Below are positions 1 through 57,501 of a DNA stretch of 64,000 bases, one piece after another; the stretch's first letter is position 1; every line of letters starts with the position of its first letter. This stretch comes from Marsupella aquatica (Eukaryota > Plantae > Marchantiophyta): assembly GCA_973895155.1 (NCBI GenBank), contig OZ316891.1:31193112-31257111 (forward strand), read 5' to 3'. The position numbers were made by a program, and so were the translations under genes. Below the pieces are notes generated by a model. It was not told the DNA's origin. It searched no databases and worked only from the letters and a program-made list of their open reading frames with translations.

Positions 1-336
1 CCCTACGATTCGGCGCCAACGAAGGAGGACATTATGACCAGTCATTTTTGGATACTCGGAGGCCAGCACACAATAATGGCGTACAAATTGCTGAGGATGG
101 ACGACAAAGTCAGCCAAGTTGTTCGGGATGCATGCGGTACAGTAGAAGCTGTAATGTTTTGGGCAACTCTCAACAACGACAATAATATTCATTTGATGGG
201 ACTATCGAAGGCTCTGAACCACTGTCATCAAACATCAATGGAAGAAGGACAGTTTCTCACCATTGTACGTCAGTGTCGTAATATCTGGAACTCATTTGGG
301 CGGCCTGGATCACATTATCGTCATCCAAATTGGAAG
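1..336 (+). other. ParB/Sulfiredoxin-like domain segment
   Basis: FWILGGQHTIMA resembles the ParB/Srx hhhGxHRxxA motif. It is followed by LSKALNHCHQTSMEE, resembling ParB ALxENxxRxxLxxxE. Motif-level recognition only. Confidence 0.45.
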
Positions 337-390
337 GTATATAAATAACCCTCTTCCCTAAACCCTAAACATTATCTTTTAAATGTTTTC

Positions 391-410
391 TCACGCGAAC
401 GGTCGCGTCA
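391..410. promoter_or_regulatory. Palindromic site 1, TCACGCG-AACGGT-CGCGTCA (intron 337-444)
   Basis: ACGCG-N6-CGCGT dyad read directly; function inferred. Confidence 0.7.
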
Positions 411-1212
411 ATCTTAGAATATTCATGTTTCCATTGTTTTTCAGGTATTTATGAGAGCTACGAGTTTTGTTTGCCCATGGGCTCAAATGGGGAAGAACGA
501 AATGATGAAATTTGGAGAATTGGCTCCATTTCTCTTTACAATGGAGGACAAAACATTCAAGAAGTGGATGGAGGTCTATGAACTATCAAGGACAGGAGAG
601 CTTGTAATTTACAACGGAATTTTACAGAGAGACACCGTCAAAATTGCGGATAATCCCTATGCTTACCATCTCCTTAAGAAGACGTTCCGTTCTTGTCAAG
701 GGTGCTCGGACTCGGTTCTTCAAAAGGCAGCGGAATATATGTTGAGCGGAAGACTGTCTATACTCAAAAACCGAAGCATCAAAGTGAAATCTGGGAAGGC
801 GAGGAAGTCCTCTGAGGCTCCGGTGTTGTCAACGACCAGCATGAGTTTGGAGCAATTTTGTATAAAGAAGAAGACGAAAGTTGAGTTTGAGATTTTGTTA
901 TTGAGTAAATTCAACGGGGATACATCCACCCGGACGGAGCTGAAAAGTCTGACAGATTCAGCGCGGAAATTGCGGGTCAACAGAATGATTGATCGCTTTA
1001 AGCTCGCCAAGATGGTGGTGAAGTAGTTGAGAGATGCGTTGAGTGGTTATCTGAAGAAGTGCTTAAATGTAAATATTAGTAATGATAATTTGTTGAAGGA
1101 GATCGACCCAATATTCTACAGGTTGGTGGAAGGAATACAGAAATCAGTTGATAGTCAAGGAAACCAACTAGTGCGGCCGGTCGGTGAGAGGCTGAAATTG
1201 CGATCCCTGTAG

Positions 1213-1885
1213 GATATACAAAATGTTGGGTTTGCAGACTGTATCATACGTGAAGACAAGAACCTTGCGAGCTTGATTTATTTTGATTCCTCATCAATGG
1301 GAGATTTGCGTCCGCCAAATTGCTCATTCTATGAGGGGTTATTTCGTGCTACTAGCGTGATAGGGGCAAAACCACACCATGTGGTTATTATTGTAGCCTC
1401 TCCCGTTGAGTCTTATTTAATCAAACGGGAATTAGGGAAGTACACACACTACGTTGCTATCGATAGCCATTATATTCAGAAGCGGCCAAAGGAGAAGAAG
1501 CTTATTGTAACCTACGCTTTTCATAGCTTGGCCTTCAGCACAATGGGCGATCCACAAGCCCTCGAGTTCCAGTTGGTCTCCAAATATCGGATTGATAAGA
1601 TAGCCAATTTTTAAGAGAGCGGCGAGTTCACGACACCTTCCCCAGAAAAGATACTTCCATTCTTTGAAAGTATTGTTAGTCAATTCGTCCAATGTGGGGA
1701 ATGGGCTATATGCTTCGACGAGGGAACGAACTTGATCCAGTGCCTAATGGTAAGTTTTGAGATTTATATTTTGGGGTTTCGATTTTAAGATTATTTGGAT
1801 TTTCATATTCTCAATTAATATTGTGAACTAATTTCGGCTTGTTTTACAGGATGCTGGATCCAATGTAAAATATTACTGCCCTGTG
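1213..1885 (+). other. Degenerate beta-class N4/N6 DNA methyltransferase-like domain
   Basis: ASLIYFDSSS sits at the position of motif IV (vDLIftDPPY). About 120 aa later, ILPFFESIVSQFVQCGEWAICFDEGTNLIQCLMDAGSNV resembles the motif X/I block (LxxLIxxxxxxGDxVLDxFxGSGT...A..xGR). The catalytic PPY is absent. Confidence 0.35.
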
Positions 1886-2207
1886 GCAACGCATAAGGAG
1901 TTGTCTTGTTTCTTGCAACACACCACGACGACAATTGATACAACGCTGTCATTGATTGACCCAATACGGGCTAGTATAGAAAAATGTATAGATAAATTAA
2001 TGAAGTACCGTCCATCCGTAACTGCTCTCAGGGCTGATGTCTTGGATGTCCTCCACAAACAACATATCCCAGATAATATTTGTAATCAATTATTGCAAGA
2101 GTATGCCCTCTCTGAAGATTCCAATCGATTGTACATTCGACCAACGGAGTACCCTCATGGGCCATTCCAAGGTAGGTTACTTTTGAACCCTCTTACTTTT
2201 TCTTGGG

Positions 2208-2227
2208 TCACGCGAACATGCGCGTGG
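2208..2227. promoter_or_regulatory. Palindromic site 2, TCACGCG-AACATG-CGCGTGG (intron 2172-2273)
   Basis: Same dyad. Confidence 0.7.
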
Positions 2228-2539
2228 ACATTCTCAACATTTCTTTCTAATCTAATGATCTGATTTTCTTCAGATCAAGTCAAACGCGGCTCCAATGTTG
2301 AGGATGCAGGGAGCAATGGTGATGCGGATGGTGAGGGGGAAGGAGACGCGGAAGGTGACGCGGATGGGGATGTCAATGACCAAGATCCAGAGTGGATGAC
2401 CGATACCCAGAACGATGTCGGATATTCCGACAAAAGCGAGGAAGAGAGTGACGGAGAGGAGATGAAGGACGCTGAGGACGCTGAGGAGGCTGAGGATGCT
2501 GAGGACGCTAAGGACTCTAATGAAGAGGCCACACAGGAG

Positions 2540-3160
2540 CCTCGTCATGAGGCGGACCAAGAGGAGGCGGCCTGGCAGGAGGACACCCGGCAGGAGGACG
2601 CCCGGCAGGAGGACACCCGGCAAGAGGCGGCCCGGAAAGAGGCGGCCTGGCAAGAGGCGGCCCGGAAGGAGGCGGCCCGGCAGGAGGCGGCCCGGCAGGA
2701 GGAGGCCTGACAGGAGGAGGCCCGACAGGAGGCTGCCCGGAAGGAGGAAGCCCGGCAGGAGGAGGCGACCCGGCAGGAGGAGGCCCGGCAAGAGGAGGCC
2801 CGACAAGAGGCGGCCCGACAAGAGGCAGCCCGACAAGAGGAGCTTCAAAAGAAGGAGGCTAAGAAGAAAAAGGCGGCAGCTAGAAAAGCAACTGCCGCAA
2901 AGAAGAAGGAAAAAACCGACACTGAGAAAGCCCAGGCGGAAAAAGCCCAGGCTGAAAAAGACAAGGCTGAGAAAGCCAAGGCTGAGAAAGCCCAGGCTGA
3001 AAAAGACCAGGCGGAGAAAGCCGAGGCTGAGAAAGCCGAGGCTGAGAAAGCCCAGGCTGAGAAAGCCCAGGCGGAGAAAGCCGAGGCCGAGAAAGCGGAG
3101 GCGGAGAAAGCGGAGGCGGAGAAAGCGGAGGCTGAGAAAGCCCAGGCTGAGAAAGCCCTT
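2540..3160 (+). repeat. Coding minisatellite, 15-bp units (QEEAR/QEAAR then EKAEA/EKAQA); predicted charged helix or coiled coil
   Basis: Repeated CAGGAGGAGGCCCGG and GAGAAAGCCCAGGCT units in the frame of the large gene. Confidence 0.9.
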
Positions 3161-4196
3161 TTAGTGACCAAGGAAAATAGGGCCAAGGCGGAGAGTGCCG
3201 AGGCAGAGAGGCTGCTGGCCGAGAGGATGGCGGACCAGAGCGAACAGACCGCAAGACCGGAGAGGGAGGAGGCGGAGGAGGCGCAAAAGGTTGATTCCGC
3301 AAGACTGGAGAGAGAAGATACCGCAAGACTGGAGAGGGTGAAGGCAGAGAAGGTAGAGGCAACGAGGAGGGAGGCCGAGAGGGCCAAGGATCTTTCGCTT
3401 ATTCCTGAAGCACAACGTCTACCGAATATAAAGCTGAATTTGAAGAAGCCTTCTTCACCCTCGGTTGCAGTTAAGAAGAAAATATTAGACTATTTTCTTC
3501 GGCCGGAGTTTGAGTTTAACGATCCACCCTTAAGAACGGTCTCGTTGGATGATTGGAATAAATATTCACCGGAGCAGCTCCGAGTCCAGGCTGTCTTGGC
3601 TTTGCAATATTGGAAGGGTCTTTTGATTACCGAGGAGAAGACTTCCACTGCATCCAGAATGGAGACAATCATCAATAATGTCTGATTTTCCGAGAATCGA
3701 GTGCAAGACCTAGGAATATCTCTGGCACCAGACTCGGCTCAAGTCGTTAAGAGACTAACAGCTGAGTTGACGCGACCGGGTTCGTGGTCTCGACCCCGAT
3801 ATACTGCAGAGGTCACTCGCGCGGAAATTGTGGCCCCAGATATTTTGGAATCGGATTCCCAGATTGTTGAATATTTAAATCAAATGCCACAACCATTCGA
3901 AGGTCTTCCCGCCTTATCGCTACAACCTTCGCAAACTGGTCCGTTGGAGCGATCACTGCGGTCTCGAGGAGGGCTTAAGGATGTTGTTGCGAAGGAGGCA
4001 CCCAAGAGATCAGCTGCGAAAAGGCCGGATCCACCCAATCCAAAGGTCATTCGCAAGCTATAAGCTTAAAGTTTCTATTACAGCTGTCATTATTTTATTA
4101 TTGATTTGTTATTGTTTCTGTTTTTTGAGGTAGAACCCTTAGGCTACAACCTCAGTACGTTATTTGAAGGCGTACTGAAATCTCTGTTTTTTGCAG

Positions 4197-4880
4197 TTTT
4201 TTGAAAATTTGGCTAGTCGAATAGATCAATGCCTTGATCCTTCTAAGGATATGGAAGAGCTATTGATCAAGTTCTTACAACACTCGATCAAGAGGAAACA
4301 TATGATGTGTCTGAGACCGCGCGAGTTGCTCACCGATGATATAATTAACGCTTATTTGAGTTTTCTCGAACTGATTCTCGATAGAGTTGGAAAGTCAGAC
4401 CTTGTCAAATTCTTCCAAACACACCATTTTGAGCTCCTCTCCATGGATCCTACCATTTTCGATGAGGAGAGAGCATCTTGGACAAAGGAGTTTCCGCTGG
4501 GAATCAGTGAATACGACAAACTGGTCTTTCCAGTACACAATGCCGTGAAAGAACATTGGTCATTGGTAGTTGTGTATCCGAAGGAGAAACGGCTCGAGTA
4601 CCTAGATTCCCTAGTTCATAATCGATAGAATCCTGGGGTGCTAGATATTGTTGGGAAGTATTACGCCGACGAAATTGGCTGGAGAACTGGTGTCAACTTG
4701 GATCTCTCAGGTTGGGAACGGATATATCGGAATGATATTCCTCACCAGAGTGACGGGCACAGTTGTGGTGTGTTTATCTTGAGATTCGCCAAGTGCTTGT
4801 GTCAAGGAAACGAAATTAATTTTGCCGCGGATCAAATTGAGAAATTCCATAGGGAGATAATCTTGTCGTTATTTGACATG
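4197..4880 (+). other. Ulp1/SENP (peptidase C48) SUMO-protease domain
   Basis: LTDDIINAY, EHWSL (His), YLDSL (Asp) and PHQSDGHSCGVF (Gln oxyanion + Cys) give an intact triad. One TAG at 4626. Confidence 0.9.
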
Positions 4881-5014
4881 GACTTCCGCAAGCCGACGTC
4901 CGCAAATAACCTAGTTACCGGGATCCGTGCTGCTATGATTGACATTGGCGGAATTGAAGTACTGAACGACCGTCTTGTACAGGTAATACACTTCATTTCA
5001 ATCTCTCTTTGTAG

Positions 5015-5034
5015 TCACGCGACTGTTCGCGTTA
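5015..5034. promoter_or_regulatory. Palindromic site 3, TCACGCG-ACTGTT-CGCGTTA (intron 4983-5066)
   Basis: Same dyad. Confidence 0.7.
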
Positions 5035-5243
5035 TAAACTTATTTTCATTTCTTAATGTTTTACAGAAACCTATCCCGAAACCCCCTGATCGAGTATCGA
5101 AGGCACCAATCCGGAAGTCCGGTGATCATCGTCTGGAGGCGGAAAACAAACAGACCATTCTAGTCTGTTCTCCAAACCCTGCGGCACAAAAGTCACAGGT
5201 ACAGATGGCGCCTAAACCATCGGCGCAGAAGTCACCGGTTTAG

Positions 5244-5971
5244 AAGAGACTTGTAATTTTTGATCTAAATCGGGTACTTATCTGGTCAGAGAAGATCATC
5301 CCTGGGATGCCCATTCGGTCAAGGGGGGTGAGACACATGTACAAGGTTATCTATCCAAGGCCTGATTTAATGGAATTTCTTCAGAAGATGGCAGATCTAT
5401 ACGACATTGCAATCTGGTCGTGCATGATGAAACGGAATATTCTATCTTGTTTAAGGCTGATACTTCGACCTGAAGTTTTGAAACGTATTAAATTTATATG
5501 GGGACAAGAATCAACTCGACCTATTGGGAAGAATAATAATGACATCCCCTTATTTGTCAAATGTCTCTCTGACATTGCCGCCGATATTAAAGATTACAAC
5601 ATCGAGAATGTCATTCTTATCGATGATGCTGCATATAAGACGACCCTTAATAACTTCTACTCATCGCTGTATCCCGATGCATATTCTGGGCTCGATGATG
5701 ACATATTTTTTAGAAAGAAACTATATCCATATCTATGCGACATGTCAATTGACAAGTTGACATTCCGCCGGCTCCTTAGTGACCATGGGATTCCAACGTT
5801 CTCTCGCAAGAATCTTGAGAAAGATTATATTGATAAGGCGAATCTTTGGAGGAGAAATGTGATCATTCGTAATCAGGGGAATAAAGACCATTTAGAAAAT
5901 TTTGACGAATATATGAAATACTTATCTGCCGAAAAAGACCGTGCTATAGAAGCCCGGGATAAGTCCGATAA
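5244..5971 (+). other. FCP1/NIF-like HAD phosphatase domain 1
   Basis: LVIFDLNRVL (motif I), RPDLMEFL, IAIWS, FIWGQE and VILIDD...K. Confidence 0.85.
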
Positions 5972-6029
5972 GTAAACATTTATTGTTTATTTTCAATTAT
6001 TATTTATAAATTGATTGAACTTTTGGGAG

Positions 6030-6049
6030 TGACGCGCCCGGTCGCGTGG
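6030..6049. promoter_or_regulatory. Palindromic site 4, TGACGCG-CCCGGT-CGCGTGG (intron starting 5972)
   Basis: Same dyad. Confidence 0.7.
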
Positions 6050-6111
6050 TTGTTTGCAATTGCATAATATGAGAATCGAATTGTTCATTTACAGGTGTCT
6101 AAGTGGAGCAG

Positions 6112-6796
6112 GTCGCGTCAACTTCTAGTTTTAGGACTGGAAAACTTCCTATGCTCTGTTTCAAAATATACTCCTCAGCTTAAGTCGACACCCGAAATTC
6201 GTATCGGATCTCTATGTGTCGTTCCGAGGCTGCATCTTCATGATCTTATAAAATTATGTTATGATCATTTTGATGTGATGATCTGGTCTATTCTCGACGA
6301 TAAACTGGTTTATCAGATACTTTCAGAAGTGTTGTCGAGCACCGACCTGTCGCAGCTGATATATGTGTTCACGCGGGATCATTGCTGGAATCTTGGTTAT
6401 GTGAAGAAAAATTATAAGACTGTTGTCTTCAAATCTATCGAGAGACTACGTGATATGTTTCAAGATTATCGACCAGAGAATATAATCCAGATTGATGCCT
6501 CTCCTTCCCATACATGCCACAGCGCTGTATGCGGATTATTGTTCGCTAAGTCGTTTCAAGGATCGTTGGATGATGTCTTTTTGAGGGATGACCTCATTCC
6601 ATATTTACGAAAGCTATGGGATTCAGGGCTTTGTCTTGCGTTCGCTAACAAGTTCGATTATCCCATCTGGTCGATTAGAAATCTACATCGAGATTGGGAT
6701 CTGAACGAGGATATATGGGAGCATCTGTACGTGCAGAGACATGCGGATCAAGTTCTTATCAAGCACTTCAACAGACGTCACTTATCAATGGCCAGA
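6112..6796 (+). other. FCP1/NIF-like HAD domain 2 (catalytic Asp lost)
   Basis: LLVLGLENFL, RLHLHDLI, VMIWS, NIIQIDAS and DDVFL...L.PYL. Confidence 0.8.
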
Positions 6797-6824
6797 GTAT
6801 AGAGGATATTTTCTCTGTAATATG

Positions 6825-6844
6825 TGACGCGACCATTCGCGTGA
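6825..6844. promoter_or_regulatory. Palindromic site 5, TGACGCG-ACCATT-CGCGTGA (intron 6797-6888)
   Basis: Same dyad. Confidence 0.7.
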
Positions 6845-6888
6845 CTACATCCATACGGGCTCATGCATCTTCTTGTGTTTCTCTACAG

Positions 6889-7578
6889 GAGATTCATTAC
6901 AGCAGAGAAAACGGGCTCATAGTTTTAGACGTGGAGCATCTACTCTGTTACACTGCACCGCATTCCCGACTGATGGCGGTCTCAACTGGAATTCGGATTG
7001 GGAATATATACATTTTTCCAAGGCCTCATCTTCACGAATTCTTGAGATTCTGTTTTGAGAAGTTTGATGTAGGAATCTGGTCCTCTCTTGGGAAGAGCCT
7101 TTTAGATCAGATTTTAGCATCTATTTTTACTGCAATGGAAATGGCCTCATTTAAGTATATTTGGGATGAGTCTCATTGTTACTTATGCGATTGGGTGACA
7201 TCAAATAAGCGGATATTTTTGAAGTGTTTTGAGAAGGTTGGAATTTATACGAAGGCGTATCTGCAGCAAAATATAATGCTTATCGATTCTGATGCATTTC
7301 ATGCTTGTTTAGATCTTGTTGTTGGATCATTATTTCCGCCCAAATATTTTGGGTCGGTCGACGACAGTTTCCTGATTAACTTGCTGATTCCGTATCTTAG
7401 CAAGCTAGCAAAATCTTGTGAGCCGCTTGTCATTGCCAATGGAAGAGATTATCCTGATTGGTCAGTTAAATCTATTTTTAGAGATTATGATTATAATCAT
7501 ACTATATGGGAAGACCCTGTGATTCAGAGGCATGGAGATAGATATCTAGTAGAGCAATTTAACAGACGCCCAATTTAG
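6889..7578 (+). other. FCP1/NIF-like HAD domain 3
   Basis: LIVLDVEHLL, RPHLHEFLRFCFEKFDVGIWSS, YIWDESHC and NIMLIDSD. Clear paralog of domain 2, sharing a C-terminal DYP.WS...RD..W......RH.D..L...FNRR segment. Confidence 0.85.
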
Positions 7579-7786
7579 GACGCTTCCGAAATAATAGTTG
7601 GCATGAGATCAGATTAATTTGTATTGTCGTTCTAGAAACGATTTGTAATCTCCCTATATACTGGTTATCATATATAAAGGATCTCAGAGATTTATTTCTC
7701 TTTTGTTATTATTTGCGTGAGCATGTCTCTTGGTCCCGTCAAGTTGGAGTGCGTAAAAAATCTTAGTTGCAGTCATTTTCAGGGTT

Positions 7787-7806
7787 TCACGCGCAATGAC
7801 GCGTCA
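7787..7806. promoter_or_regulatory. Palindromic site 6, TCACGCG-CAATGA-CGCGTCA (about 210 bp 3' of the stop codon)
   Basis: Same dyad. Confidence 0.7.
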
Positions 7807-8261
7807 TGTCGCCCCCTTTTCATATTAAAATAATAATATTTAGTGATTTTCGGAATTTCCAAAGTTCGGTTTTCCTTAAATTGGGGTTATTGACATATGA
7901 CAAATCACTTCCTTTTTTATTACATAGGGTCCAATTTCCCATTTGAGTGGCATATGCAATGATCATAAACTGGGCCATAAACAAAGCTCAAGGTATGTTA
8001 GACTTTAGAACATGTACTAGGGTTACAACTGTCAAAGCCTGTATTTAGGCATGTACAGTTGAATCAACATTTTCAAGGGCAATATCTCCTACAACTATCA
8101 AGGTTTTACTTTTGGATTCCGAGGAGGGTCAAGCAAGGTTGACAAAAAAGTTGCATATGATGAGGTTCTTTATTGAACGGGTGAATAAAGATTGTATCAC
8201 TTTTGTATTAATCTGTTTGACTTTTAATTTGCCTGAATTACATGTTTGCAATGCACAACCA

Positions 8262-8447
8262 TGTTTGCCTCACCTAAAAATCTTGCCCTCTCCTCGACAT
8301 CTTGCCCTCACCTCGACGTCTTGCCCTCTCCTCGACATCTTGCCCTCACCTCAAAATCTTGCCCTCTACTCGACATCTTGCCCTCACCTCCAAATCTTGC
8401 CCTCACTTCAACATCTTGCCCTCTCCTCGACATCTTGCCCTCACTCA
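8262..8447. repeat. Minisatellite, 19-bp unit (ATCTTGCCCTCWCCTCGAC), about 9-10 copies
   Basis: Directly visible tandem units. Confidence 0.9.
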
Positions 8448-8789
8448 AAGTCTTTCGTGCAACGCACGGGCATGGGGCTATACATCAATAATACCCTCAT
8501 ACATTATCTTACTTGCCTGGTTAGCATATTGACATTTGACGAGTGCGAGCTAAATTATAATTATAGTTCAATATCTATGCATGACACAGAGGATGAGAGG
8601 ATGCTGGTGGGACAGAATATGTTGCATAAAAGGTGTTGCAAAATCGATGTTGGATTAAAAAAAAGCCCCTATGTAGAAGATCACATTTTGCTATAAAGGT
8701 TGATACAGATCAAAGATCATTGTGTAAAAGATCAAAGGTCATTGTGTAAAAGATGTGATAATGCTCGATGTTGTGTTTAGGTGTGTAAA

Positions 8790-9015
8790 AGGTATTGCTG
8801 CATAAAAGATGTCATTGTCTGGGTCAGTGTGGAAAACAAGCATTGCTGCATAAAAGATGTCATTGCCCTGGTCAGTGTGCAAAGACTACAATGCATAAAA
8901 GAGGTTTCATGTTGTGCGGGTCAGTGTGCAAAACAAGCATTGCTGCATAAAAGATGTCATTGCCCTGGTCAGTGTGCAAAGACTACAATGCATAAAAGAG
9001 GTTTCGTGTTGTGCA
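8790..9015. repeat. Tandem repeat, ~48-bp subunits forming a ~97-bp higher-order unit
   Basis: Repeated CATTGCTGCATAAAAGATGTCATTG...GGTCAGTGTGCAAA. Confidence 0.8.
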
Positions 9016-9210
9016 AACGAATCATTGCACAAAATAAATTTAGGAAATAATAAACACGTTTGGATTACTTTGTTATATAATTATTAAATCATAAAGAAAG
9101 ATTTTTTATTACTTCATTTTGATTACTTTGCCCTTAAAACACACCTGCCCATATAAAGTCTGATTCCCTCTCTCAATACTCCTCATTCCTTCCACTGGTG
9201 AACACACTCT

Positions 9211-9407
9211 TGCCATAAAATGTGGAGCACTCACCACTTTTTGTGGAGCTTGCCATAAAATGCAGAGCACTCATCACTTTTTGTGGAGCTCAAGCCCATT
9301 CTTGAATTTGTACACCTTACAATGAGAGTTATGGGTTGCCTGTAACTACTCACCACTTTTTGTGGAGCTCAAGCCCATTCTTGAACTTGTACACCTTACA
9401 ATGAGAT
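9211..9407. repeat. Short imperfect tandem duplications
   Basis: TGCCATAAAATG..GAGCACTCA.CACTTTTTGTGGAGCT twice, and CTCAAGCCCATTCTTGAA.TTGTACACCTTACAATGAGA twice. Confidence 0.75.
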
Positions 9408-10144
9408 ACCCCGTAGCTCTTTATAGATGCACTCGTGCTTTAAAGAGATTAAAATACTGCAACTGCTTTGACTATGGTTATTAATGTTAACTTGTCACCT
9501 ACATGGCACTTCCCAATTGGAAGTATTTCCAGTCCAGTCTGTGTAGGGTTTAGATCTGGGGTTAGGGAGCTCTCGCCTATTTTCCACATCTTAACTAAAA
9601 ACATCCAAATGCGCATCTTGTTGGGTCTCTGTGGTCTTCTAGGGGTCTTTTGCCTTTTGATCATGTCTCCCGGTTTGGTAGTTGCTGTCCTTTTTTGGCA
9701 GTGTGATGTATAAATGCGCATCTTTTGAACGGGAGCTTTCCAGACACGGGCAACAACACAGGAGAATGATGGCTTGGGTTTAGGGAGCCCCTAAACCCCT
9801 TTCGCTTTTGGCCATTTCTGAACAGGATTTCTCTCAGAAGAAACGAAGATTGCACATCCGAAACCAAGCACCCACAAACATCGTGCCTCAGCTGTCTGTC
9901 GGCTCCTCCCTGTCTGTTGTCTGTAGGTATGTTTGTGCATTCACTCAGAGCACCTTCTTACGAGCATCCAAAGAACCATGTGCATTTCACTAAAGAGCAC
10001 CTTCTCACGAGCATCCAAAGAAGACAGTGCATTCACTTAGAGCACCTTCTTACGAGCATCCAAAGAACAGAGCAGCTTCAGATGGCCCAAGGAGATGAAG
10101 TGGAGCACCAACCAGCACAAACCGACCGCAGGCGCAGAATGCGG

Positions 10145-13731: not shown

Positions 13732-16700
13732 TCACTTCCCTGATGTGTGCTTGCCATCTTGGAACTGGGCGTTACTCGATGATCTAAAAGTTTGCAAGAA
13801 TGCTTTAGCTTTTGCCAGTTCATCCCTTTTTCGCCACTTGTCCCACTTGTGCTCTGCTGCAAGGATCTCTATCACACGAGGTAATGCCCTCCCGGCAGCA
13901 TCTGTATCGAGAAAAGCCAACCTGGAGCGACGTGCAATGAAGTCTACGGCAGACTCACAGTATTCATTCCGTGCGCAGTATGCAACCTCTGCCTCCAAGA
14001 CTGGATAACCATGAGCTAGCCTCTTGCCCAGGCCTTCCATCTGCTCATCACCCACATTAAACGTTTCTTATTAACATCAATGAACCCATTTGAATTTCTT
14101 TGCTGATTGTCCACCTAAAACTGAGTTTGACCCGAACATGTGCCATTCGCTATCATGTGAGAAAATCGTCGAAAGTGCTTTGGTTCGATGAAAGACTGGA
14201 CAATAAGGACCCTGGTGAAACATTCGAATGCAACATAAATCCGGAGGAGATCCATCCAGCCTGAGACGAAGTAAATAATTCAGATCCAAAATTTATGATA
14301 TTAAAGGGTGCATTTTCGCAAAGGAAACAGCGCGGAAGGTGTACTGCGAACCTGTGCAATTATAGCAACACGTTGTGCCATTCCTCCGTATGAGTGAACC
14401 AGATGCTTGGCCGCAGCTGTGTCAAATGCTCCAGGGACTAATTTTCCTCCATAAGTTTGCTTCATGCGCACATACTGTTGCGTGAGGACCGTGAAGGAAG
14501 ATGGCTCATATCCGTCAGCTCCAATCACTGCCAAGTTCTCTGTAATGCAGGGATTGGAGGGCTGCAGTGACCCAACCCTTATTGCTGCATTGACAGCATC
14601 TTCTGCCATACTGCACAGTCAAAAACATTTTAGTGCAGCTTAGCGTCAAATCCGCTCATTAAATCAATCTACAATAACTCAACGTGCTAAATTCGGAAAC
14701 CGTATTCAGGTAAAAACGATAATGATCTGTGCGATGGATGCTACAGTAAGCTAGGGCTCTACTAGAAAGAATAATCATTCTTTGGACCCAAGACGTACAA
14801 AAGCTAGCCAAGCTGCAAAGCGCAATTATCGAGAAAAGTCCGAAAGGTATGTGCTGAACCTTCTATATGTGGTCCACTTCCCACCAGTAACAGTTACTAA
14901 ATCATGCTCATCTGTGACTATCACATGATCCCGGGATATACTAGCAGTATCCTTGGCTGTCGGATCACTGGCCAGAGGTCGTATTCCACTCCAAGCTGAA
15001 AGTACATCTGACCGCCGAACCTGGTTCAAGCTGACAATTAGACGACTACAGCGGCATCGTAGCACAAGCACTGAAATGAACCCATCACAACAATTAAGGT
15101 GGATATCCCATTCCATATGAGAAACACATATTCCATATTCAAAGAATTTTCAGAAACAGTGGCAACGCAGGTCTACCTCTACGTTCACACAGTAGAGAAA
15201 ACCTACCTTGATGCACAAGTAGTCACTAATAGCATCCAAAATAAATCGGATTTCGTCCTCATGGGGCTCGGGTAAATGGGTTATAGGAGTGACAGAATCT
15301 GTGGTCCCTGCCACTGTCCTGCCCATCCAAGGCAGCATGAAAACAACCCTGCCATCTTTGGTCTTAGGTACGATGAGACCCATTTCCTCTGGCGAATAGT
15401 AGTCCGGAAGGACGATATGTATACCGCTGCTTGGGGATATCATAGGCTTTGCTTTTCTATCAGCTAATTGCCTCACGGAATCGCAAAAAGGTCCTGCTGC
15501 ATTCACGACCACTTTGGCATACACATCAAATTCTTTCCCTGTCAGGTTGTTGCGTACCCTGGCCCCTGTTACTTTTTCAGTGACATCATCTTTGTGGATA
15601 GTAAGAACTTCAGCATGGTTGAGAACTGCTGCCCCTGATAGCGCTGCTGTGCACGCCAACGCTATGTTTAGACGGGAGTCATTCATCTGTCCGTCATAGT
15701 AAACAAGGGTGCCCTTCAAAGATTTCCCGTCTGGATTTCCCTTCGACAGCGTCGGAAAGAGCTCCAGCGACTGCTGAGCTGAGAAGAAGCGAGACATGTG
15801 AAGCATGTGGCGGCCAGCCACCAAATCATAGAGCTTGAAGCCTGCCCAGAAATATGGAATCTGCCACCAGTCATAGCATGGTGTCATGGTAGGAAGTGGA
15901 TTGCACAGATGTGGCGCATTATGCAGTATGTTGGCTCTTTCTTCAAGTGCATGGAATACTAGTTTCAGTTGTCCATAGTCCAGCTGAAACACAGCTTTTT
16001 CCAAATACCTGACTCCTGTTTCAAGCAGAATCCAGAAGTGATTTCAGAAAATGATTTCTTCGTCAACAAAAGTTCCAATTTTTCACCTAAATTGAATATT
16101 TCCAACCAAACTCATCCAAAGATTTAACATTGCAAGACTCACATCTAGTACACCAAACATGGACCAAGAACGCTCTGTTGAGTGAGTAGATCACTGGAAA
16201 GGTGCAGTCGAAATCAATTGCTGATTTATATCATTAAGCATTAACCGGCCCAACCTGCTAATTGAAAGGCTGAAAGAATGGCACAACGTCTGATTTGGGA
16301 ACCTCACAACATGGTGTTTTATTTTAGGTTGTCCCTTTGGAGGAAGGTTAAAATTCAGAGGGTAACGATAAACAACGTCTCCAATCGAAGTATGCTTTGA
16401 ACTACCAACAATGTAAAAAGCAGAGTCAAAGAAGGGCCCAATCTTCCCACCAACGATACGAAGATGAAAGCCAACCAGAAACGTAGGATTCAAACGGCAC
16501 TGTCATTCTATAGACAAAATGAAAGGAAAGAAATTGAGAGGGAGAGTTGAATGGTTGTGACTAAGAAGAGAGTTTTCCAACCTCCATGTACCAGTTTTGT
16601 AGACCGCGAGGAGGTTCCCGCAGAAAAATCTTCACGCTCAACCAGCCCAACTCGAAGACCGCGGGTGGCCGCATCTAACGCCACTCCACAACCCGTAGCT

Positions 16701-17790: not shown

Positions 17791-17980
17791 CTTCCTCTAC
17801 AAGTCCTCAGGGCCAAGGAAGATCTCGAATTCACACAACAAATCACACATCTAGCAGGACAGAGAGGAGCAAAGCAAAGCGAGGACTTCCTCTACAAGTT
17901 CCCAGGGACAAGGAAGATCTCGAATTCACACAACAAATCACACATCTAGCAGAACAGAGGGGAGCAAAGCAAGGCGAGGA
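17791..17980. repeat. ~95-bp tandem duplication in the 5' leader of the GPDH gene
   Basis: Two copies of CTTCCTCTACAAGT...AAGGAAGATCTCGAATTCACACAACAAATCACACATCTAGCAG...GAGCAAAGCAA.GCGAGGA. Confidence 0.85.
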
Positions 17981-21016: not shown

Positions 21017-21810
21017 TAGGGATGTTGTGTCATGCAGAATACGTTTTGGTTGTTGTATTCTTGTTATTTCTTGAAGAGATTGGTGGTTTGGTAAGATGAT
21101 TTAGTGTCATTTAGCATTCTCCGTAGCTTCAATGATGAACAATTCGCATTTCAGATGAGTATTGGGGGAGCCCTTCAGTTGCATAATTTTGAAAACCTGT
21201 ATTGTGTAATGGGTATTTTCTCTTGCGTTATGAATAGAATACAACATTGTTTATGTATTCTCTGATCTATCTATTATGTAACACATTGCAACATTCTTTT
21301 GTATGTTGAGAATACAACACAGAATACTACATGGTGTATGTATACTTTGAATTCTATTTCATGTAACACGTCTAGGTTGCGCCTGCTTTGCTACTTCATT
21401 GCTAGGGTTTAGGGTGCACAATCAGTTGCGCGTATGCCTTATCTTTGGCGAGGGTTTAGGATTTTAGAGAGATGGCGGCCGATGAGCGAGGAGGATTGTT
21501 TTAGGGAGGGATTCCACTATTGGAGCTCGCAAATCGATCGATCGAAGGCCTGATGTGCTGGTGAAGGGGGATTGCGCGCGATTGGGAGCAATTGGGAGCG
21601 ATCGATTTAGGGAGCTGGTCATGGGGGACTGCGCGCGATTGGGAGTGAGTGAGCATAGAGCGATTCAGGGAGCTGGTGCTGGTGAAGGGGGATTGTGAAA
21701 TCACTTGGGATTGCCTGTCGGGTGATTGGAGTGACTGTCGAGCGATTCAAGGAGATCAAGGAGTGAACGTTGGGCAGGTCGGTTGGGTTTTGAACCCAAC
21801 CAAGGTAGTC

Positions 21811-24751
21811 ATGGTGCCCCATGCCAAGAAACTAACATTGGCAAAGGAGGGACAGCATTTTCGATACCGTGTAGGCGAGCAGGGGAACCACGTATTCAAG
21901 TGTATATGCGCCGGTCATGCTCCTCGCGGTTTCTCTTCGTTCAAGTCATTTCAGACTCACTTGAGCACCAAGCATGGCCAAAAACTCCCTGCTGATTTGT
22001 TGGAGCCAGGCCTGCCTTGGTTGAGTTCAAAACTCAACACCTCTCGTCCCGCCAAGAAACCACGGAAATGCAGCAACAACAGTGGTAAGAAGACGGAAGG
22101 TGCGTCATGGATTCGATTACGGTCGACTGCCAAGCTAAGATGGCAAATGACGAAGCAGCGCAAAAAGAATCAACTGAAGGTGGACTATTGCGTTTCAGTT
22201 CTGGGGAAGAAGGAGCCATCGGTTCCATCGAAATCGGTGCTTGTTCGTCTCATTAAGGTCTACCACATTCGTCCGAAAGAGAAGAGTGGTTGGGGCTGCT
22301 TGGTAGACGATAGTTTCTTTGAGATGTTACAGGAGCATGTCAGCTCTGCTCCTATCACCAATGCTGTGTATCACTGGGCCGAGCATGTGCAGCAATTGCC
22401 TGCTCAGTTGCCTGTGGATCGAAAGTTGCATGCTTTGCAGGTTGATTGTCGACTATTACAGGTACTTTTTCCGCTGAGAGATGTCCCTGCCCAGTCTGTC
22501 CAACCTTCAGCAGGTGAGGAGAGTAGAGAACTCATTGTTGCAGACGCCTTGGAGTTTTTGAGGAAGAAAAGGGAAAGTCTGTTGTGGAAAGTCGGAGCAA
22601 AAGAAATCGATTTTGACCATGCCTATCCAGACTATGTGAAGTGGAAAAAGGAGCAGAAGCATCTGTCAATTGCCACAGCCGGTCGAAATTGTGTGAAAGA
22701 TTACACAAGTGATGGCATGTCACAAGAAGAAGCAGAGGCAGCGGTACGTAACACAATCATTTTACTTGCCTTTGCATTGTTGTGTATACTTCGCGCACAA
22801 TGTTTACACCAATTTTCATATTGCAGGCTGGAGTTCACGAAGTGTGGGTTGATACCTCAGATGAGGAGGGGTACGAGCCCACCCCTGACAAGTGGGGATT
22901 AGATTATCATGAGTCCTCTGATGAAGAAGACGCAGCAGAGGTATAGTTCCTCTTCCCCTTCTGCCAATGATTTTTTATGAATCTGCATAGTTTGACAACA
23001 TTGACCGGAATGTCTACGAAACTTCAGGTTCCTTTGAATGACGAAGCTCAAGCCAAAGAATCAGGGAAGAAAGGAAAGCCACGCAGGAAGCCAAACGAAC
23101 CCAAGAAGCAGCCTCCACAGAAAATTACGCCTCCTGTTGACACTCAGGAAGCCGATGAGGTAAATTTGCACTTCCAATGTAATTATCCCATTTGTATACC
23201 ATGATATCAATGTATGCACGATGGTTTAGTGCTCTTAGCCCGAGTATTGCTTTTTCAGGTTCCTCCCAACAAAGGAGCCGAAGCCAACCAATCAAAGCGG
23301 AAAACAAAAAGAACCAAGAAATCTGTAGAGCCACCACCGAACGGCAACACCACCCTTCCCGTAGATTCTTAGCAAGCTGACCAGGTAACGTTTACAGATG
23401 AAAGTTCTTTGCAAAATGTGTAAATAGTGTGGAGAACGTTTCCTGTTTTATCAACACTGCAAGTTCAAGAGTAGGACATTATGTTGAATACCATGATGTT
23501 AATGTATACTCACTATTTGAATGCGCCTGTACCCCGAGTATTGCATTTTAGGATCCTGAATCCCATGAAGGACCTACACCCGAACAATCTGTAGAGCCAC
23601 CACCGAACGGAAACACCACCCTTCCCGTAGATTCTCAGCAAGCTGACCAGGTAATGTTTACAGATGAAAGTTCTTTGCAACATGTGTAAATAGTGTGGAG
23701 AACGTTTCCTATTTTATCAACACTGCAAGTTCAAGAGTAGGACACCAATCTTATGTTGTATACCATGATGTTAATGTATACTTACTGTTTGAATGTGCCT
23801 GTACTCCGAGTACTGCATTTTAGGTTCCTGAATCCCATGAAGGACCTACACCCGAACAATCTAAGAGGAAATCAAAGAGAACCAAGAAATCTGTACAACC
23901 ACAGAAGCCCGCGCCTGAGGTAAGCGTGTTTTCAATAGGCCAAGGAGGAACATTCCAACATAGACAGTGGTAAAAATGTATTCTATGTGTACTTATTTGA
24001 TTTAAACATGCAATCACCTTAGTTTGCAATGACAGGGACCAAAGGAAGGAGAGCAAGCAACGGCACCCCCGGAGACAGAAAAAAGTGAACCTAGACGTTC
24101 AAAGAGGAAGCAAACAACTGCTCCCACCGAAGAGAAAATTGCCCAAACAAAAAGAAAGACCAGAACTAAAACCAAGGTAAGTACAAATCATTGTGTACTA
24201 TGTGGCCATATTGTATAGGGACTAAACACATGATTCGCTTGATACTGATTTCAGCCTTACAATTGCAGGATTCATCTAAACAAGTCCAGGATGTCAATGC
24301 ACAACCAGCACCAGAGGGAGGCAACACTATTGAAACTCAGGGTACTGCCCTTCCACCGAATGTGTCTGCAATCCCATCAGGAGAGGTGACTGCACCGGTA
24401 GGGAGCACACCTTATGTAATTGACTTTGGTGGCATGATTGATTGGTAAGATGTGTTTCTTTGCTGATTGCTTTCATATGTGAATTTGCAGGAGTACCAGA
24501 AACCACCTGATGTGCAACCAGACCCATATGCAAGTAGACGTCGGAGAAAATTGACAGTTCGTGGGCCATTGGGCAAGGCGCAAAGTGAATTTGTAATCCC
24601 GGGGTCTGTACCACAAGAGGTCACTGTGCAGGAGGACGATATTTTGGATTCCTTGCACGCATCACAAATTCTCCAAGATTGTAGCCAGGCTGATGTTACC
24701 TCTTTTCACAAGGCAATCGATAAAATGATTAATAATGTGGATGAAGTTTAG
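21811..24751 (+). CDS. MULE accessory gene, multi-exon: N-terminal C2H2-like zinc finger and K/E/P-rich low-complexity C-terminus; function unknown
   Basis: Long first exon containing FKCICAGHAPRGFSSFKSFQTHLSTKH, then about 8 short GT-AG-bounded exons ending at TAG 24749-24751. Exon boundaries are approximate. Confidence 0.6.
23205..23865 (+). repeat. Tandem duplication (~270-bp period) of exon+intron units inside the accessory gene
   Basis: ATCTGTAGAGCCACCACCGAACGG...GCTGACCAGGTAA...GTAGGACA at ~23320 and ~23586; CCTGAATCCCATGAAGGACCTACACCCGAACAATCT at ~23555 and ~23827. Confidence 0.85.
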
Positions 24752-24999
24752 GGTACAATTAGCAATATCTGAGGGATAGTCTAGGGTACCTAGCCCTGTT
24801 TTGTCACCAATGTGTTCATGATAATAAATATGAAATGTTCCTGCATTTCTTGCTCTCTTTGAAGACTATATAACATGATCTGTTCCAAAAATGGTCATAG
24901 TAGATCTATGGCTGGGATACAATATGTATGTTGTATTCACATTTTCTCTGACTTTACGACGAAGATGCCCCACTGTCGAATCCTTCCCACTGACTAAGG

Positions 25000-25650
25000 C
25001 GCCCAAATGGACAAAAACTACGGAATTTGAACACAGAAAACCCTTTTTCATGTATACGATCTGGACGATGTATTCAGATTTCACACTTGGAAAAAAAATG
25101 TCCCTCCGACTTTACGAACACGCCCTCCGCCGAAGCCTGCCCAAATGGACAAAACCTATGGAGTCTCAACATAGAGATACATATTTCATGTACACACTTT
25201 GGACATTGTATTCAGATTTCACACTTGGAAGCAAAAAATTGTCCCTCCGACTTTACGAACACGCCCTCCGCCGATGCCTGCCCAAATGGACAAAACCTAT
25301 GGAGTCTCAATATAGAAATACATGTATACACTTTGGACATTGTATTCATATCACACTTGGAAATAAAAATTGTCCCTCCGACTTTCCGAACACGGCCTCC
25401 GCCGAAGCCTGCCCAAATGGACAAAACCTATGGAGTCTCAACATAGAAATACATTTTTCATGTATACACTTTGGACATTGTATTCAGATTTCACACTTGG
25501 AAAAAAATATTGTCCCTAGCCCTCCGACTTTACGAACACGGCCTCCGCCGAAGCCTGCCCAAATGGACAAAACCTATGGAGTTTCAACATAGAAATACCT
25601 TTTTCACGTATACACTTTTCACGTTGTATTCATAATTCACAGTTACAAAA
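25000..25650. repeat. Tandem array, ~130-146-bp unit, about 4.5 copies, between the convergent 3' ends of the MULE genes
   Basis: GCCCAAATGGACAAAAC recurs at ~25000, 25139, 25280, 25411 and 25557, with a shared TCCGACTTT.CGAACACG.CCTCCGCCGA.GCCT. Confidence 0.92.
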
Positions 25651-25929: not shown

Positions 25930-28900
25930 CTATTCTGTGATATCTACTTCATGAGGTAGCCCAAAATAAGGGCAATTATCAACAGCTTCTTCAGCAAGTT
26001 CAGTGATGCGCCGCGCCCACTCATAATCCAAGGAGTTTTGAATGCGTGGATTGGAAGGCATAGTACCACTGCCTATTGTTGGTGCTCCAACGGTGACAAG
26101 CCACTCACTTTCTCCAGCATTGTTCACATTGTCATGCTCTTCCCCTTCCACCTGCGCATTACAATAACACTAGAATAAGTAAACAAATTCTTATGAAACT
26201 AGGACTTTTATATGGACCATCTCTGTCTTGCAACATTATAACATTTGGTACCTGCTCATCATCTTCAGTTGCTTGGGCAACTGAAACTTCTTTGCAAGAT
26301 CGTTTGTTGTGGCCAACCTTTCCGCACCTGCTGCACGTACACTTTACATTACCCCGCTTCCTTTTCTTAGGTAGGATCTCAACCATTGGGAGGCCACTCG
26401 CAGAGTTTGCACCTGGAAACGGAATGCCTCTCTCATTGTCATCATCCATTGGATATCTGAGACACAGCCTTCCTGTTGGATCAAGATGGAGGTCCTCCCC
26501 ATTCCCTAAAGCCCTGGAACGAGTTTCCCCATGAATTCTTACCATTCGATGTCGCCCATTCACTATAGTAGGTTCTGGAGCATGACAACTTAAGCTCAAT
26601 GGAAGGTGAGTGGAAACAAAACTAGGTAATACACCATCATAAAGTAAAACCAAAGACTGTGTCCGCCAGCATTTATGAAAATGCCTAGCCGGATTCTTTC
26701 CTGTTTCATCATCCCATGCCAGCATATGTTGGCATGGCCAAACCATCTCCTGCAGCTCCATGCAAGTGCACTTTGGTTTTGGTGATAAAGTGACAAGATA
26801 CTCCTCACTCCCTGTTGTAGTCTGAATTTTGGCACTGGATTGACCATCACTGAATACCTGTAGCATGACAGTATGAAATATGAAGCGTGAGACAATCCAT
26901 CCTCCACATGTGGTCAAAATGTTTGTTACAAAAGGAAAAGAAAGAGCCAATTTGCACCTGGAATTGTTGGAAGTTCTGCAAGTTGGTATTGTATCGTAGT
27001 TGTGCTGGTTTTGACAATGGTTCTTGTCTGCATGCAACCTCTATTCTCCTGTCTTTAAACTTTTGTTGAATGTACACCCAAAGAGCCACCAACAACTTTC
27101 CAGGTGCTAGCAGACGGAATGGTAATAATCCAGAATTTGCTTGCTCGGCTGGATTACTTGTGACCTTACCCATGCGAGGGAGTGGGAATGCATGCCTGGC
27201 ATAACATTTCACATCCAGACCGCGGATGTAATGTGCTGCATCAACTCCCTTGCCGGCTATCAATGAACCAGACAGTCGATCTAGCACAGACTCATATCTG
27301 AATTGAAAGAGACAGAATACATGAGTGACAATGTTTACAGAGACAGAATACATCAAGCACAATGTCAAAATATATAGAATACATCAAGCACAATGTCTGA
27401 ATAGGCAAATTGCTTTCATATTGGTCCTAGTGAGTGTATTTACTTACTGGTGCACATCATTGGCATAGACACATCCGTAGAAGAATTCACTTGCTGTTCT
27501 ACCATGCCTGGTCTTCACGTTTGCCCTCAAATGATTTGTGCACTGTGCATGGATCTTTCCTACTGTCCAAAAATAATAAATTAGATTTTGTACTCCAGTT
27601 AGCACAGTATCATCATAACTCTCAAATTTGACAGAATTAAGCAATCTAAGTGTGGAAGGGTGTTACCTGGCCAAATCTGACTTACAGCAGCAGTGAGACC
27701 CTTTTGACGATCTGACATGATGACAATGTCTTCACTACCAATGCCATATACAGCTCTGTCCATTAATTCTAGAAACCAAAGCCAGTTCTCTGTGTTTTCA
27801 ACTGGTGCTACTCCATAGTAAAGTATGACACCGTTTGAGTTCCCATCCAGGCATGTAGCTAAAAATAGTTGAGTTGGATATTTTCTATTCTTGGTGTGAC
27901 AAGCATCTAAACTAACCATCGGCTGAGTATAGTTAAGTGCTTTCCTGGTGGCAGATGGACATATGAATGCTCTGCAAAAAATGGTGGAGTCCTCCATAGT
28001 GCACCAATGTGCAACACAGCCAGGGTCTGTCTCCCGAATCCTGTCAATCAATGCTGGGATCATCTGAAAAGATGATTTCTGTGAGCCAGCGGTCCAATGC
28101 CCTACAAGATCTTTGCCCCGCCACATTTGCTGGTAGTTACTTCCTCGCTTGTAGTCACCTTGGAAACCAGACAGCAATTCCTTCACAGGCATTTTCAGAT
28201 TTCTGATGATTCTTGGAGCCAATGTTACCCCCAACCATGCAGACTTGTGAGTAGGAGCTCTCCACTTGTGAATGTGAGCAGCACAAGTATGTGTTAGTTC
28301 ACATACAGTGATAATATGACCCCCACCCTTCACTCTACTGCAACGTACTCTGAAAGAACATTCATCCTCTGAGTAAAGCAAGTCTTCTGGTCCTGGTGGA
28401 GAGGGCTTAGATCTGGACAACTGTCCACAAGCTCCAGTTGCAGATGGCTTCCTAGTTTTCTGTTGACCAGGTTTACGTGGGTGTTGCGAACCAGGTAACC
28501 AAACGCTAGTGTGTTGGACTATGGACTTTGGTCTGTTGTGCACAACTCTTCCTTGTGTAGACAAAACAGTATTTATGTGCACAGTTTGTTGTACAGATAT
28601 AGGTGCATTTTGGTGCACGGATTGTTGTGTAGACAATGACACATTTGTCTGCATGGTGTTCGCTTGAATGGCTGAAAGCGGTGCACAAGGTTGCTGACGA
28701 GCAAGAGTGATCTGATTAATGGCATTATGAAATTGACGATCTTCAATCTGCAAAACCCCATGATTGTACACACCAAGAATTTCAGCAAGTGATTGTAGGA
28801 TGTCCCAAAATAAAAAAAGGTGTGGCATTGGTGGCAGTGGCAGCGGCAGCACACACCTCTGCTTGACTGCGATATCGATTCTCTTGTTGTGTAGTTTGCT

Positions 28901-29291
28901 GCAATGTCTGAGACCTTGGTCCTTTCGATCGTCTTCTACTCCAATGGCCATATCTGCTATGAAACTCATGCTCACCTTCTGACTCTTCATCCTCTTCCTC
29001 AAATTGAAGCTGCCACTGGTTTGGTTCCTCCGTAGCATGTGAACGAATGTTGTCATTGTCACCTTGATCATCACAAGCTGCCTCATCATCGACTACCTGT
29101 TTCGATCTAGCAATCTTTCCAAACCTGCATACACGAATACATCAATTTGCAAACGTCTTGTATCTGGACATGGCTCGACCATTCATCACAGCCAGAGAAT
29201 CTAGGCACCGATCAAACTCTTCAAAGCTATTGAAGTGCTCTCCCAACTTGATTCGAGCAGCCTCTGCTGCCACTGTAACAGAGGAAGACAT
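25930..29291 (-). CDS. MuDR/MULE DDE transposase with SWIM and CCHC zinc knuckle (spliced; start may lie further upstream, near 29613)
   Basis: LGEHFNSFEEF N-terminal motif, VSLDACH, CLDGNS, ENWLWFL, IMSDRQKGL, HAQCTNHL, TSNPAEQANS (catalytic E), SWIM CTC...WPCQH, and CSRCGKVGHNKRSC. Confidence 0.92.
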
Positions 29292-35910: not shown

Positions 35911-36286
35911 TATTCAAACCTATTCCAGTATGCAACTCTTCAGGTGCTATAATTTGGTTGTTCAATAACATCTACACTTATAATAAGGGTTCCCCTTTTT
36001 TTGTTGGTCCCAACACAAAAAAGCTCTTGGGAGGGAAAAATACACAATCGTTGGATTCGATTGACTGTTTTCCCTGACCATTGACAGAGGAAATGTGCAC
36101 CCTGACACATATGTCCTTCCCGCTGTCCCATAAATGCCCCGGCCCTACTCCCTATGGGCTGGCCCTCTCCGTGTCGTGCAACCCAGGGGCATAGGGCTTG
36201 TCCAACTTAAATAACCAAGGGGTCCTCGGACCTAATTAGGTGAACTAATTAGGTGCTAAGGAGTAATAGCCCTTTGTCCATCTAGG

Positions 36287-42940: not shown

Positions 42941-43160
42941 ACCAGTGGCTGGAGATTGATCCTGTACAGTAATCTCTGGAGGTTGATCCAGTAATGTTGT
43001 CACCAGTGGCTGGAGCTTGATCCTGTACTGTAATCTCTGGAGATTGAGCCAGTAATGTTGTCACCAGTGGCTGGAGATTGATTCAGTACTGTAATCTATG
43101 GAGATTGTGGCTGGATTGATCCAGTACTGTAATCTATGGAGATTGATCCAGTAACGTTGT
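42941..43160. repeat. Tandem repeat (~27-33-bp subunits, ~60-bp period) immediately 5' of and overlapping the start of the PLATZ-like ORF
   Basis: Repeated TGGAGATTGATCC.GTA.TGTAATCT / GTTGTCACCAGTGGC. Confidence 0.85.
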
Positions 43161-57270: not shown

Positions 57271-57501
57271 GACATGCCACTAACATCGTACCTTGTGCTC
57301 TACGTTGTGCTCAACTTCTAAATCCGCCACAAGTTTGGGAAGCCGTGTATATACGTGCTCTTATAAGTCAGCTTCAGTCTTGACCTTCTCATACAGGTTT
57401 CGCGAGCAGATCGAGATCGAAGACTGGAGTTACTTTAGTGAATAGTCGAGAAGCGCTGCAGTCGAGAAGTGGTAGAGTCTAGCTTACCGTGAAGGATCAG
57501 A

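Follow-up and report, generated by a model that had tools for sequence, protein, structure and literature searches.

Accessory genes that join a ParB domain to a methyltransferase are carried by transposons of brown, red and green algae (PMC12477816; bioRxiv 10.1101/2025.02.11.637652), and in both reports the binding of ParB-type accessory proteins to their own elements is a proposal only. A Sola transposon of Ectocarpus encodes a 1,104-amino-acid accessory protein with ParB and N4/N6 methyltransferase domains (PMC12477816), and in Bostrychia the PAG3 genes, which combine ParB with a 2-oxoglutarate (2OG) oxygenase, adjoin inverted-repeat arrays (bioRxiv 10.1101/2025.02.11.637652). In addition, a 2015 review of eukaryotic adenine methylases mentioned fusions with helix-turn-helix (HTH) domains of the ParB kind in chlorophytes and chytrids (PMC4738411), and VANDAL elements carry, in introns and elsewhere in their non-coding DNA, family-specific motifs to which VANC proteins bind, causing hypomethylation of the elements (PMC5735166). 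A ParB-like gene is also found in the liverwort Marsupella aquatica, at the beginning of a stretch of 64,000 nucleotides (GenBank assembly GCA_973895155.1, contig OZ316891.1, positions 31,193,112 to 31,257,111 of the forward strand), which is called the window hereafter. The gene lies within positions 1-8481, the 3′ portion of a repeated element that has decayed; it is a real feature and extends the recently proposed class of transposon accessory genes. The reading preferred here, to which a probability of about 0.55 is given, is that the ParB-fold protein binds palindromes of its own family as a dimer and so brings its other domains to the element.

Like Sola1-1_Ec32 of Ectocarpus, for which binding and modification of its own element have been proposed (PMC12477816), the Marsupella gene is transposon cargo and has a ParB-like domain followed by an amino-methyltransferase-like domain. 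However, as far as a comparison of descriptions goes, the element in the window is from a land plant and has a Helitron-type end, its methyltransferase-like domain is tentative and lacks DPPY, its gene probably continues to Ulp1 and three NIF domains, and its candidate sites are in introns. The PAG3 genes of red-algal Plavaka transposons, which are mobile between transposon classes, are likewise ParB-type accessory genes with nearby inverted repeats and a proposed binding to their own elements, but their partner domain is another one and their repeats are tandem arrays beside the gene, whereas the window has single palindromes in introns, and those of a second family differ. With VANC and VANDAL the element shares a short family-specific motif that is concentrated in introns and non-coding parts and differs between families; unlike the window sites, which are spaced palindromes known from sequence alone, VANC motifs are 8-9 bp long and in a single orientation, and their binding and the resulting hypomethylation have been shown. 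The bacterial ParB-parS systems (PadC, 6ryk; KorB, 8qa8; Caulobacter ParB, 7bm8) resemble the plant gene in the predicted N-terminal fold and in the 16-bp palindromic candidate site, but the arginines of the GERRxRA motif and the glutamate of the EN motif are absent from the plant family, which also lacks ParA and an identified HTH. What is new is probably the land-plant host, the Helitron-type end and a probable fusion to Ulp1 and dead NIF domains; new also are the loss of both catalytic motifs and the family-specific intronic palindromes, which permit a direct test of specificity. No report of a ParB accessory gene in land plants or Helitrons was found in the literature covered, which leaves out most subscription journals, and the accessible text of the Marchantia DN4MT1 preprint and of the bdelloid N4CMT paper makes no mention of ParB.

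The repeated nature of the element is seen in contigs from four public runs, which are dense over 1-8480 (2,612, 4,311, 99 and 1,686 contigs aligned to 1-9000). Summed contig depth, which is not the same as copy number, drops in the last bin: two runs go from thousands to 100-300, and a third goes from hundreds to 30. Loose contig ends cluster directly after 8480 in three runs (33, 29 and 4 contigs); because their consensus starts with GT at an agreement of 0.44-0.57, the copies share the end base and then enter differing flanks. The end itself (8456-8481) consists of a 5-bp hairpin at 8456-8468, 9 nt and CTA at 8478-8480, and reads CTAT in the window copy and CTAG followed by T in other copies. 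Canonical Helitrons have a hairpin, CTRR and a target between A and T, and Ulp1 is one of their listed cargoes (PMC11417382). On its 3′ side, the only one observed, the element has these features of a Helitron (HLE1), that is, the hairpin, CTRR in the other copies and insertion before T, and it is very probably a Helitron. No RepHel transposase was found among the 22 open reading frames of the window scanned with Pfam, the upstream part of the element being outside the window. A second hairpin-like sequence, with 2 mismatches to 8456-8471 and no clear CTRR after it, is located at 36170-36205.

The original prediction, made from the letters of the window, had described a plant nuclear gene spliced as 1-336, 445-1749 and 1850-2171. 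These junctions have GT donors and AG acceptors and give one joined frame, in which the three announced stops, and no more, interrupt the first three exons (TAG 1024, TAG 1210 and TAA 1612). The peptides that it quoted are present: FWILGGQHTIMA at 46-81, LSKALNHCHQTSMEE from 202, ASLIYFDSSS at 1267-1296 and FFESIVSQFVQCGEW from 1660. The last two stand in the predicted order, although about 130 and not 120 amino acids apart. On the other hand, the gene is not an ordinary nuclear one: it is cargo of the repeated, Helitron-ended element and probably extends to 7578. The splice model has splice signals and homologues as its only basis. Homologue P0001 (418 amino acids) is 56% identical to exon 1 and runs off at the donor position of the window, P0003 (452 amino acids) is 51% identical to exon 2 and runs off at the second donor position, and in P0024, a protein of Calypogeia fissa, exon-1-like sequence is continuous with exon-2-like sequence; this liverwort gave two homologues among the 20 proteins looked up. 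Because P0003 has amino-acid residues at all three positions of the stops, the gene family has open frames and its copy in the window is a pseudogene. Full-length homologues of 787-2245 amino acids were sought with query A2 and none was found; a scan of metagenome, viral and prokaryote contigs with query A4 gave no confirmed relative, tblastn against phages nothing useful, and PDB sequence searches with queries A2 and A3 no significant match. The features of the element are as follows.

1-336, forward strand: exon 1, C-terminal half of the predicted ParB/Srx-fold domain; GGQHT at 58-72, LN at 214-219
391-410, no strand assigned: palindrome 1, in intron 337-444
445-1749, forward strand: exon 2, helical middle part as a DNA-binding candidate, followed by the tentative methyltransferase-like domain of the beta class; stops at 1024, 1210 and 1612
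1850-2171, forward strand: exon 3, end of the methyltransferase-like domain, then a helical stretch
2208-2227, no strand assigned: palindrome 2, in intron 2172-2273
2274-4057, forward strand: exon, acidic tract and 15-bp repeats coding for a QEEAA-/AEKA-type coiled coil; stops at 2708 and 3683; donor at 4058 non-canonical (CT)
4197-4982, forward strand: Ulp1 (Peptidase_C48), Pfam E 1.4e-8 and 2e-7 for its two halves; stop at 4626
5015-5034, no strand assigned: palindrome 3, in intron 4983-5066
5067-5972, forward strand: linker and NIF/FCP1-like domain 1 (E 1.4e-11), DxDxT degenerate; stop at 5241
6030-6049, no strand assigned: palindrome 4, in intron 5973-6094, the donor of which is imperfect in the window copy
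6095-6796, forward strand: NIF domain 2 (E 8.9e-10), DxDxT lost
6825-6844, no strand assigned: palindrome 5, in intron 6797-6888
6889-7578, forward strand: NIF domain 3 (E 4.3e-14), DxDxT degenerate; terminal stop at 7576
7787-7806, no strand assigned: palindrome 6, in the 3′ non-coding tail
8223-8463, forward strand: subterminal 19-bp tandem repeat, repeat family D3
8456-8481, forward strand: Helitron-type 3′ end

A ParB/Srx fold is predicted with high confidence for the protein's N-terminal part. When the predicted fold of P0001 was compared with known structures, the eight best matches were all ParB/Srx proteins, in agreement with the assignment made originally, and the nearest folds were those of the cytidine triphosphate (CTP)-binding ParB-type proteins PadC and KorB. 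Judged from P0001, the rest of the ParB/Srx domain and an N-terminal PH-like domain are encoded upstream of the window. Scans with Pfam, PHROG and NCBIfam gave no significant ParB or methyltransferase match, the best being ParBc_2 (E 0.06). The helical middle region (residues 131-230 of P0003) is predicted at a pLDDT (predicted local distance difference test) of 70-87, without a fold match and without an identifiable HTH. In bacterial ParB the GERRxRA motif contacts CTP (PMC10786196). The equivalent of this motif, as aligned by eye, is GQH[TS] in 12 of the 13 homologues and GQYS in the remaining one, so that the arginine, the loss of which had been predicted, is kept in none of them; furthermore, the position of the EN motif is LN or FN and its glutamate is absent. 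These replacements are evidence against a true nucleotide-switched clamp, which would load at the palindromes as at parS, slide, and spread the Ulp1, NIF and methyltransferase-like domains; it is a variant of the preferred explanation rather than an exclusive alternative. The closeness of the predicted fold to PadC and KorB, the 16-bp palindromic core and the conservation of an N-terminal CR motif and a C-terminal N in the family speak in its favor, but it is considered unlikely: because the CTP arginine is lost, the expectation is not a sliding clamp switched by CTP but dimers or bridges bound at the sites.

In a language-model comparison, residues 200-410 of P0001 have fungal DUF3723 proteins as their top neighbours (0.95, 180 shared features). 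This neighbour ranking, which comes without alignment or E-value, hints that DUF3723 could be a ParB/Srx-fold family; no paper on DUF3723 together with ParB was found in the literature. DUF3723 proteins (Pfam PF12520) of fungi are associated with Starship elements.

The palindromic sites proposed to accompany the gene are present. The sequence TSACGCGA-N4-TCGCGTSA occurs with at most 2 mismatches at 391, 2208, 5015, 6030, 6825 and 7787 and nowhere else in the 64 kb, and the exact 16-bp core ACGCG-N6-CGCGT is common to all six. None was found in any of 300 first-order Markov simulations of 1-8481, although this control is post hoc because the pattern was derived from the six sites themselves; the finding is replicated independently in the loci L001-L005 described below. 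Five of the palindromes are intronic, 28-57 nt past the donor, and the sixth is in the 3′ tail, while two of the seven introns have none; thus all six are within the non-coding 19% of the element (p ~5e-5). In an unbiased scan of 5-mers, moreover, ACGCG ranked first for enrichment in non-coding DNA, being present in 6 of 8 segments where 0.36 would be expected. The position of these five sites after splice donors would suit intronic RNA hairpins serving splicing or small-RNA control, the ParB-like gene being passively captured cargo, as gene capture of this kind occurs in Helitrons (PMC11417382). Such hairpins are nevertheless improbable, the least probable of the explanations considered here: outer arm positions are mismatched without compensation in all six sites and the spacer is free in sequence but fixed in length, and for these reasons a dimeric protein site fits better than an RNA hairpin. 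Besides, 9 of 13 sites in a distant relative (L001, see below) are upstream of the gene, homologues less than 50% identical retain the same motifs and open frames, and Rfam gave no match in 1-10000. Contigs over intron 1 show no variant of at least 5% in the palindrome; this comparison is non-discriminating, because 411-444 is equally free of such variants.

Five metagenome loci, L001-L005, were reached through the distant homologue P0028 (E 2.3e-4). L001 encodes a stop-free protein of 1,202 amino acids, cut by the contig end, which has introns at the two positions of the window gene. Over 379 columns its exon 2 is collinear with that of the window family (E 2.3e-4); its N-terminal region and the PH-like region of P0001 are not similar. 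Its palindrome is a different one, TTTGGGTCG-NN-CGACCCAAA, present in 13 exact copies, nine upstream of the gene, two in each intron and none in exons; copies with at most 4 mismatches number 3 in L002, 2 in L003, 12 in L004 and 4 in L005. The window motif occurs in none of the five loci, and the window has one four-mismatch match to the L001-type palindrome. No transposase and no Helitron end were seen in L001-L005. The pairing of the gene with its own palindromes, as originally predicted, thus holds at the level of the letters, the window element having six sites and L001 having 13 of a different type, and the two protein-palindrome pairs suggest that protein and site co-vary. Because a distant relative with an equal gene layout has a different intronic palindrome, the window protein would likely bind its own palindrome and so mark its own transposon. 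Upstream of the L001 gene, between the short palindromes, there are also two related long inverted repeats (1509-1650 and 1849-2036; arms of 60-83 bp and a loop of 22 nt).

The same loci bear on the question of which protein uses the palindromes. The palindromes may instead serve the RepHel transposase, another factor encoded upstream or a host factor, with the ParB-like protein acting otherwise. The 5′ part of the element is outside the window, and transposases themselves can activate cognate copies according to the abstract of a 2026 preprint (10.64898/2026.08.24.746577); against this, palindromes accompany the ParB-like gene in L001-L005 with no transposase within 1.3-7.7 kb, and inverted-repeat arrays also flank the ParB-type PAG3 genes of red algae. 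Among host proteins, the CAMTA proteins are binders of the CGCG box; the palindrome of the L001 family contains no CGCG, which argues against a single shared host factor. Service to another protein is accordingly given about the same small chance as the sliding clamp, and the candidate palindromes are, as a somewhat favored possibility, bound by the ParB-like protein.

According to the preferred reading, the predicted ParB/Srx protein would bind the ACGCG-N6-CGCGT sites in its own introns as a dimer and so mark the copies of its family. The likely task would be to hold the family open against silencing by the host, as VANC does for VANDAL elements, and the effectors brought to the site would be the SUMO protease and the dead carboxy-terminal-domain (CTD) phosphatase domains. 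The element shows no CpG depletion: its ratio of 0.92-0.93 compares with 0.56 for the remainder of the window and 0.33 for a Mutator-like element (MULE) close by. This fits an anti-silencing role but fits the youth of the element as well; an F-box exon reaches 0.81. A stronger version, which is rather unlikely, is that bryophyte transposons turned the bacterial ParB-parS centromere module into self-recognition: the ParB-fold protein of each family would load at a family-private intronic palindrome and spread along the element, and with it a dead DNA methyltransferase, a SUMO protease and dead CTD phosphatases that prevent silencing. If true, eukaryotes would have a clamp loaded at parS-like sites, and land plants a second anti-silencing system of independent origin. 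In any case the class of ParB accessory genes is extended to land plants and probably to Helitrons, and two protein-palindrome pairs with different sites make specificity testable by reciprocal binding. If a pair works, plants would have a compact address system made of protein and DNA, from which it could be learnt whether loading on DNA or spreading along it persists in a ParB fold that has lost the CTP arginine.

The second catalytic motif that is lost belongs to the methyltransferase-like domain. Regarding the methyltransferase claimed for this part of the gene, the absence of DPPY stands, while the ancestry is unproven and has a weak profile match to motifs X-I-II as its evidence. The presumed motif-IV position reads LIYFDSS (at about 1273 in the window), FIYLDCS, LIFLDST, FALIDFR (twice) and IAMIDFK, with (D/S/N)PPY in none of the six sequences; because PPY is missing even in the stop-free L001, its loss characterizes the family and is not due to decay of the window copy. 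At the motif-I position, where FxGxG is expected, the window has CFDEGT (at about 1711) and L001 VFGGSK. Judged by eye, the elements succeed one another as in an amino-methyltransferase of the beta class. First come a strand with Asp at its end (LIYFD, or LIFLD in P0004), a helix and another strand; about 130 amino acids further on there is a helix, then a strand that bears a glycine motif (CFDEG, or VFGGSK in L001), and finally one more helix and strand. Five plant sequences were compared by hhalign with a profile of 34 YhdJ-like proteins from 75 viral loci, the presumed motif IV serving as an anchor placed by hand. A weak match was confined to the motif X-I-II segment and covered 40 columns (E 0.01, probability 4%); of 50 column shuffles, 1 exceeded its score, and global-mode hhalign against the YhdJ-like profile gave no match. 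The predicted fold of exon 2 (P0003) has a pLDDT of 44, and of less than 50 over residues 270-452, which is too low for a structural search, and an Atlas search with the methyltransferase-like part gave a top score of 0.81 and no lead. Descent of this third domain from a beta-class amino-methyltransferase (PF01555), now catalytically dead, is slightly favored, and catalytic activity is unlikely whatever the ancestry.

ParB, the middle region and the methyltransferase-like domain are probably joined in one polyprotein with what is encoded downstream of them, namely an acidic coiled coil, Ulp1 and the three NIF domains. The corresponding eight-exon model from 1 to 7578 has 2,277 codons in one frame and seven internal stops; all seven acceptors are a pyrimidine-rich CAG and five of the seven donors are GT, those at 4058 and 5973 being near misses in the window copy. 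Because these two boundaries were picked by the analyst, the single-gene reading is itself an inference. Both halves of Ulp1 exceed the Pfam gathering cutoff and its His, Asp and Cys triad is visible, one stop interrupting it in the window copy, whereas the DxDxT motif is intact in none of the three NIF domains (DLNRV, GLENF and DVEHL).

The rest of the window contains a decayed MULE transposase with a SWIM finger (26159-29092, reverse strand), which is strongly CpG-depleted (the ratio of 0.33 given above) and has none of the palindromes, and an open frame of 417 codons (21649-22902, forward strand) in which a C2H2-like pattern is seen but for which Pfam gave nothing at E 0.01. Apparent host genes include an exon of a flavin adenine dinucleotide (FAD)-dependent oxidoreductase (15150-16043, reverse strand) and a kelch-repeat protein (57493-58806, forward strand). 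Two further apparent host genes, both on the forward strand and without a Pfam match, are presumably SET-like (38301-39170) and PLATZ-like (43133-43852), as judged by eye. Short tandem repeat arrays outside the element are located at 8767-9008, 9228-9406, 17791-17980 and 24879-25592.
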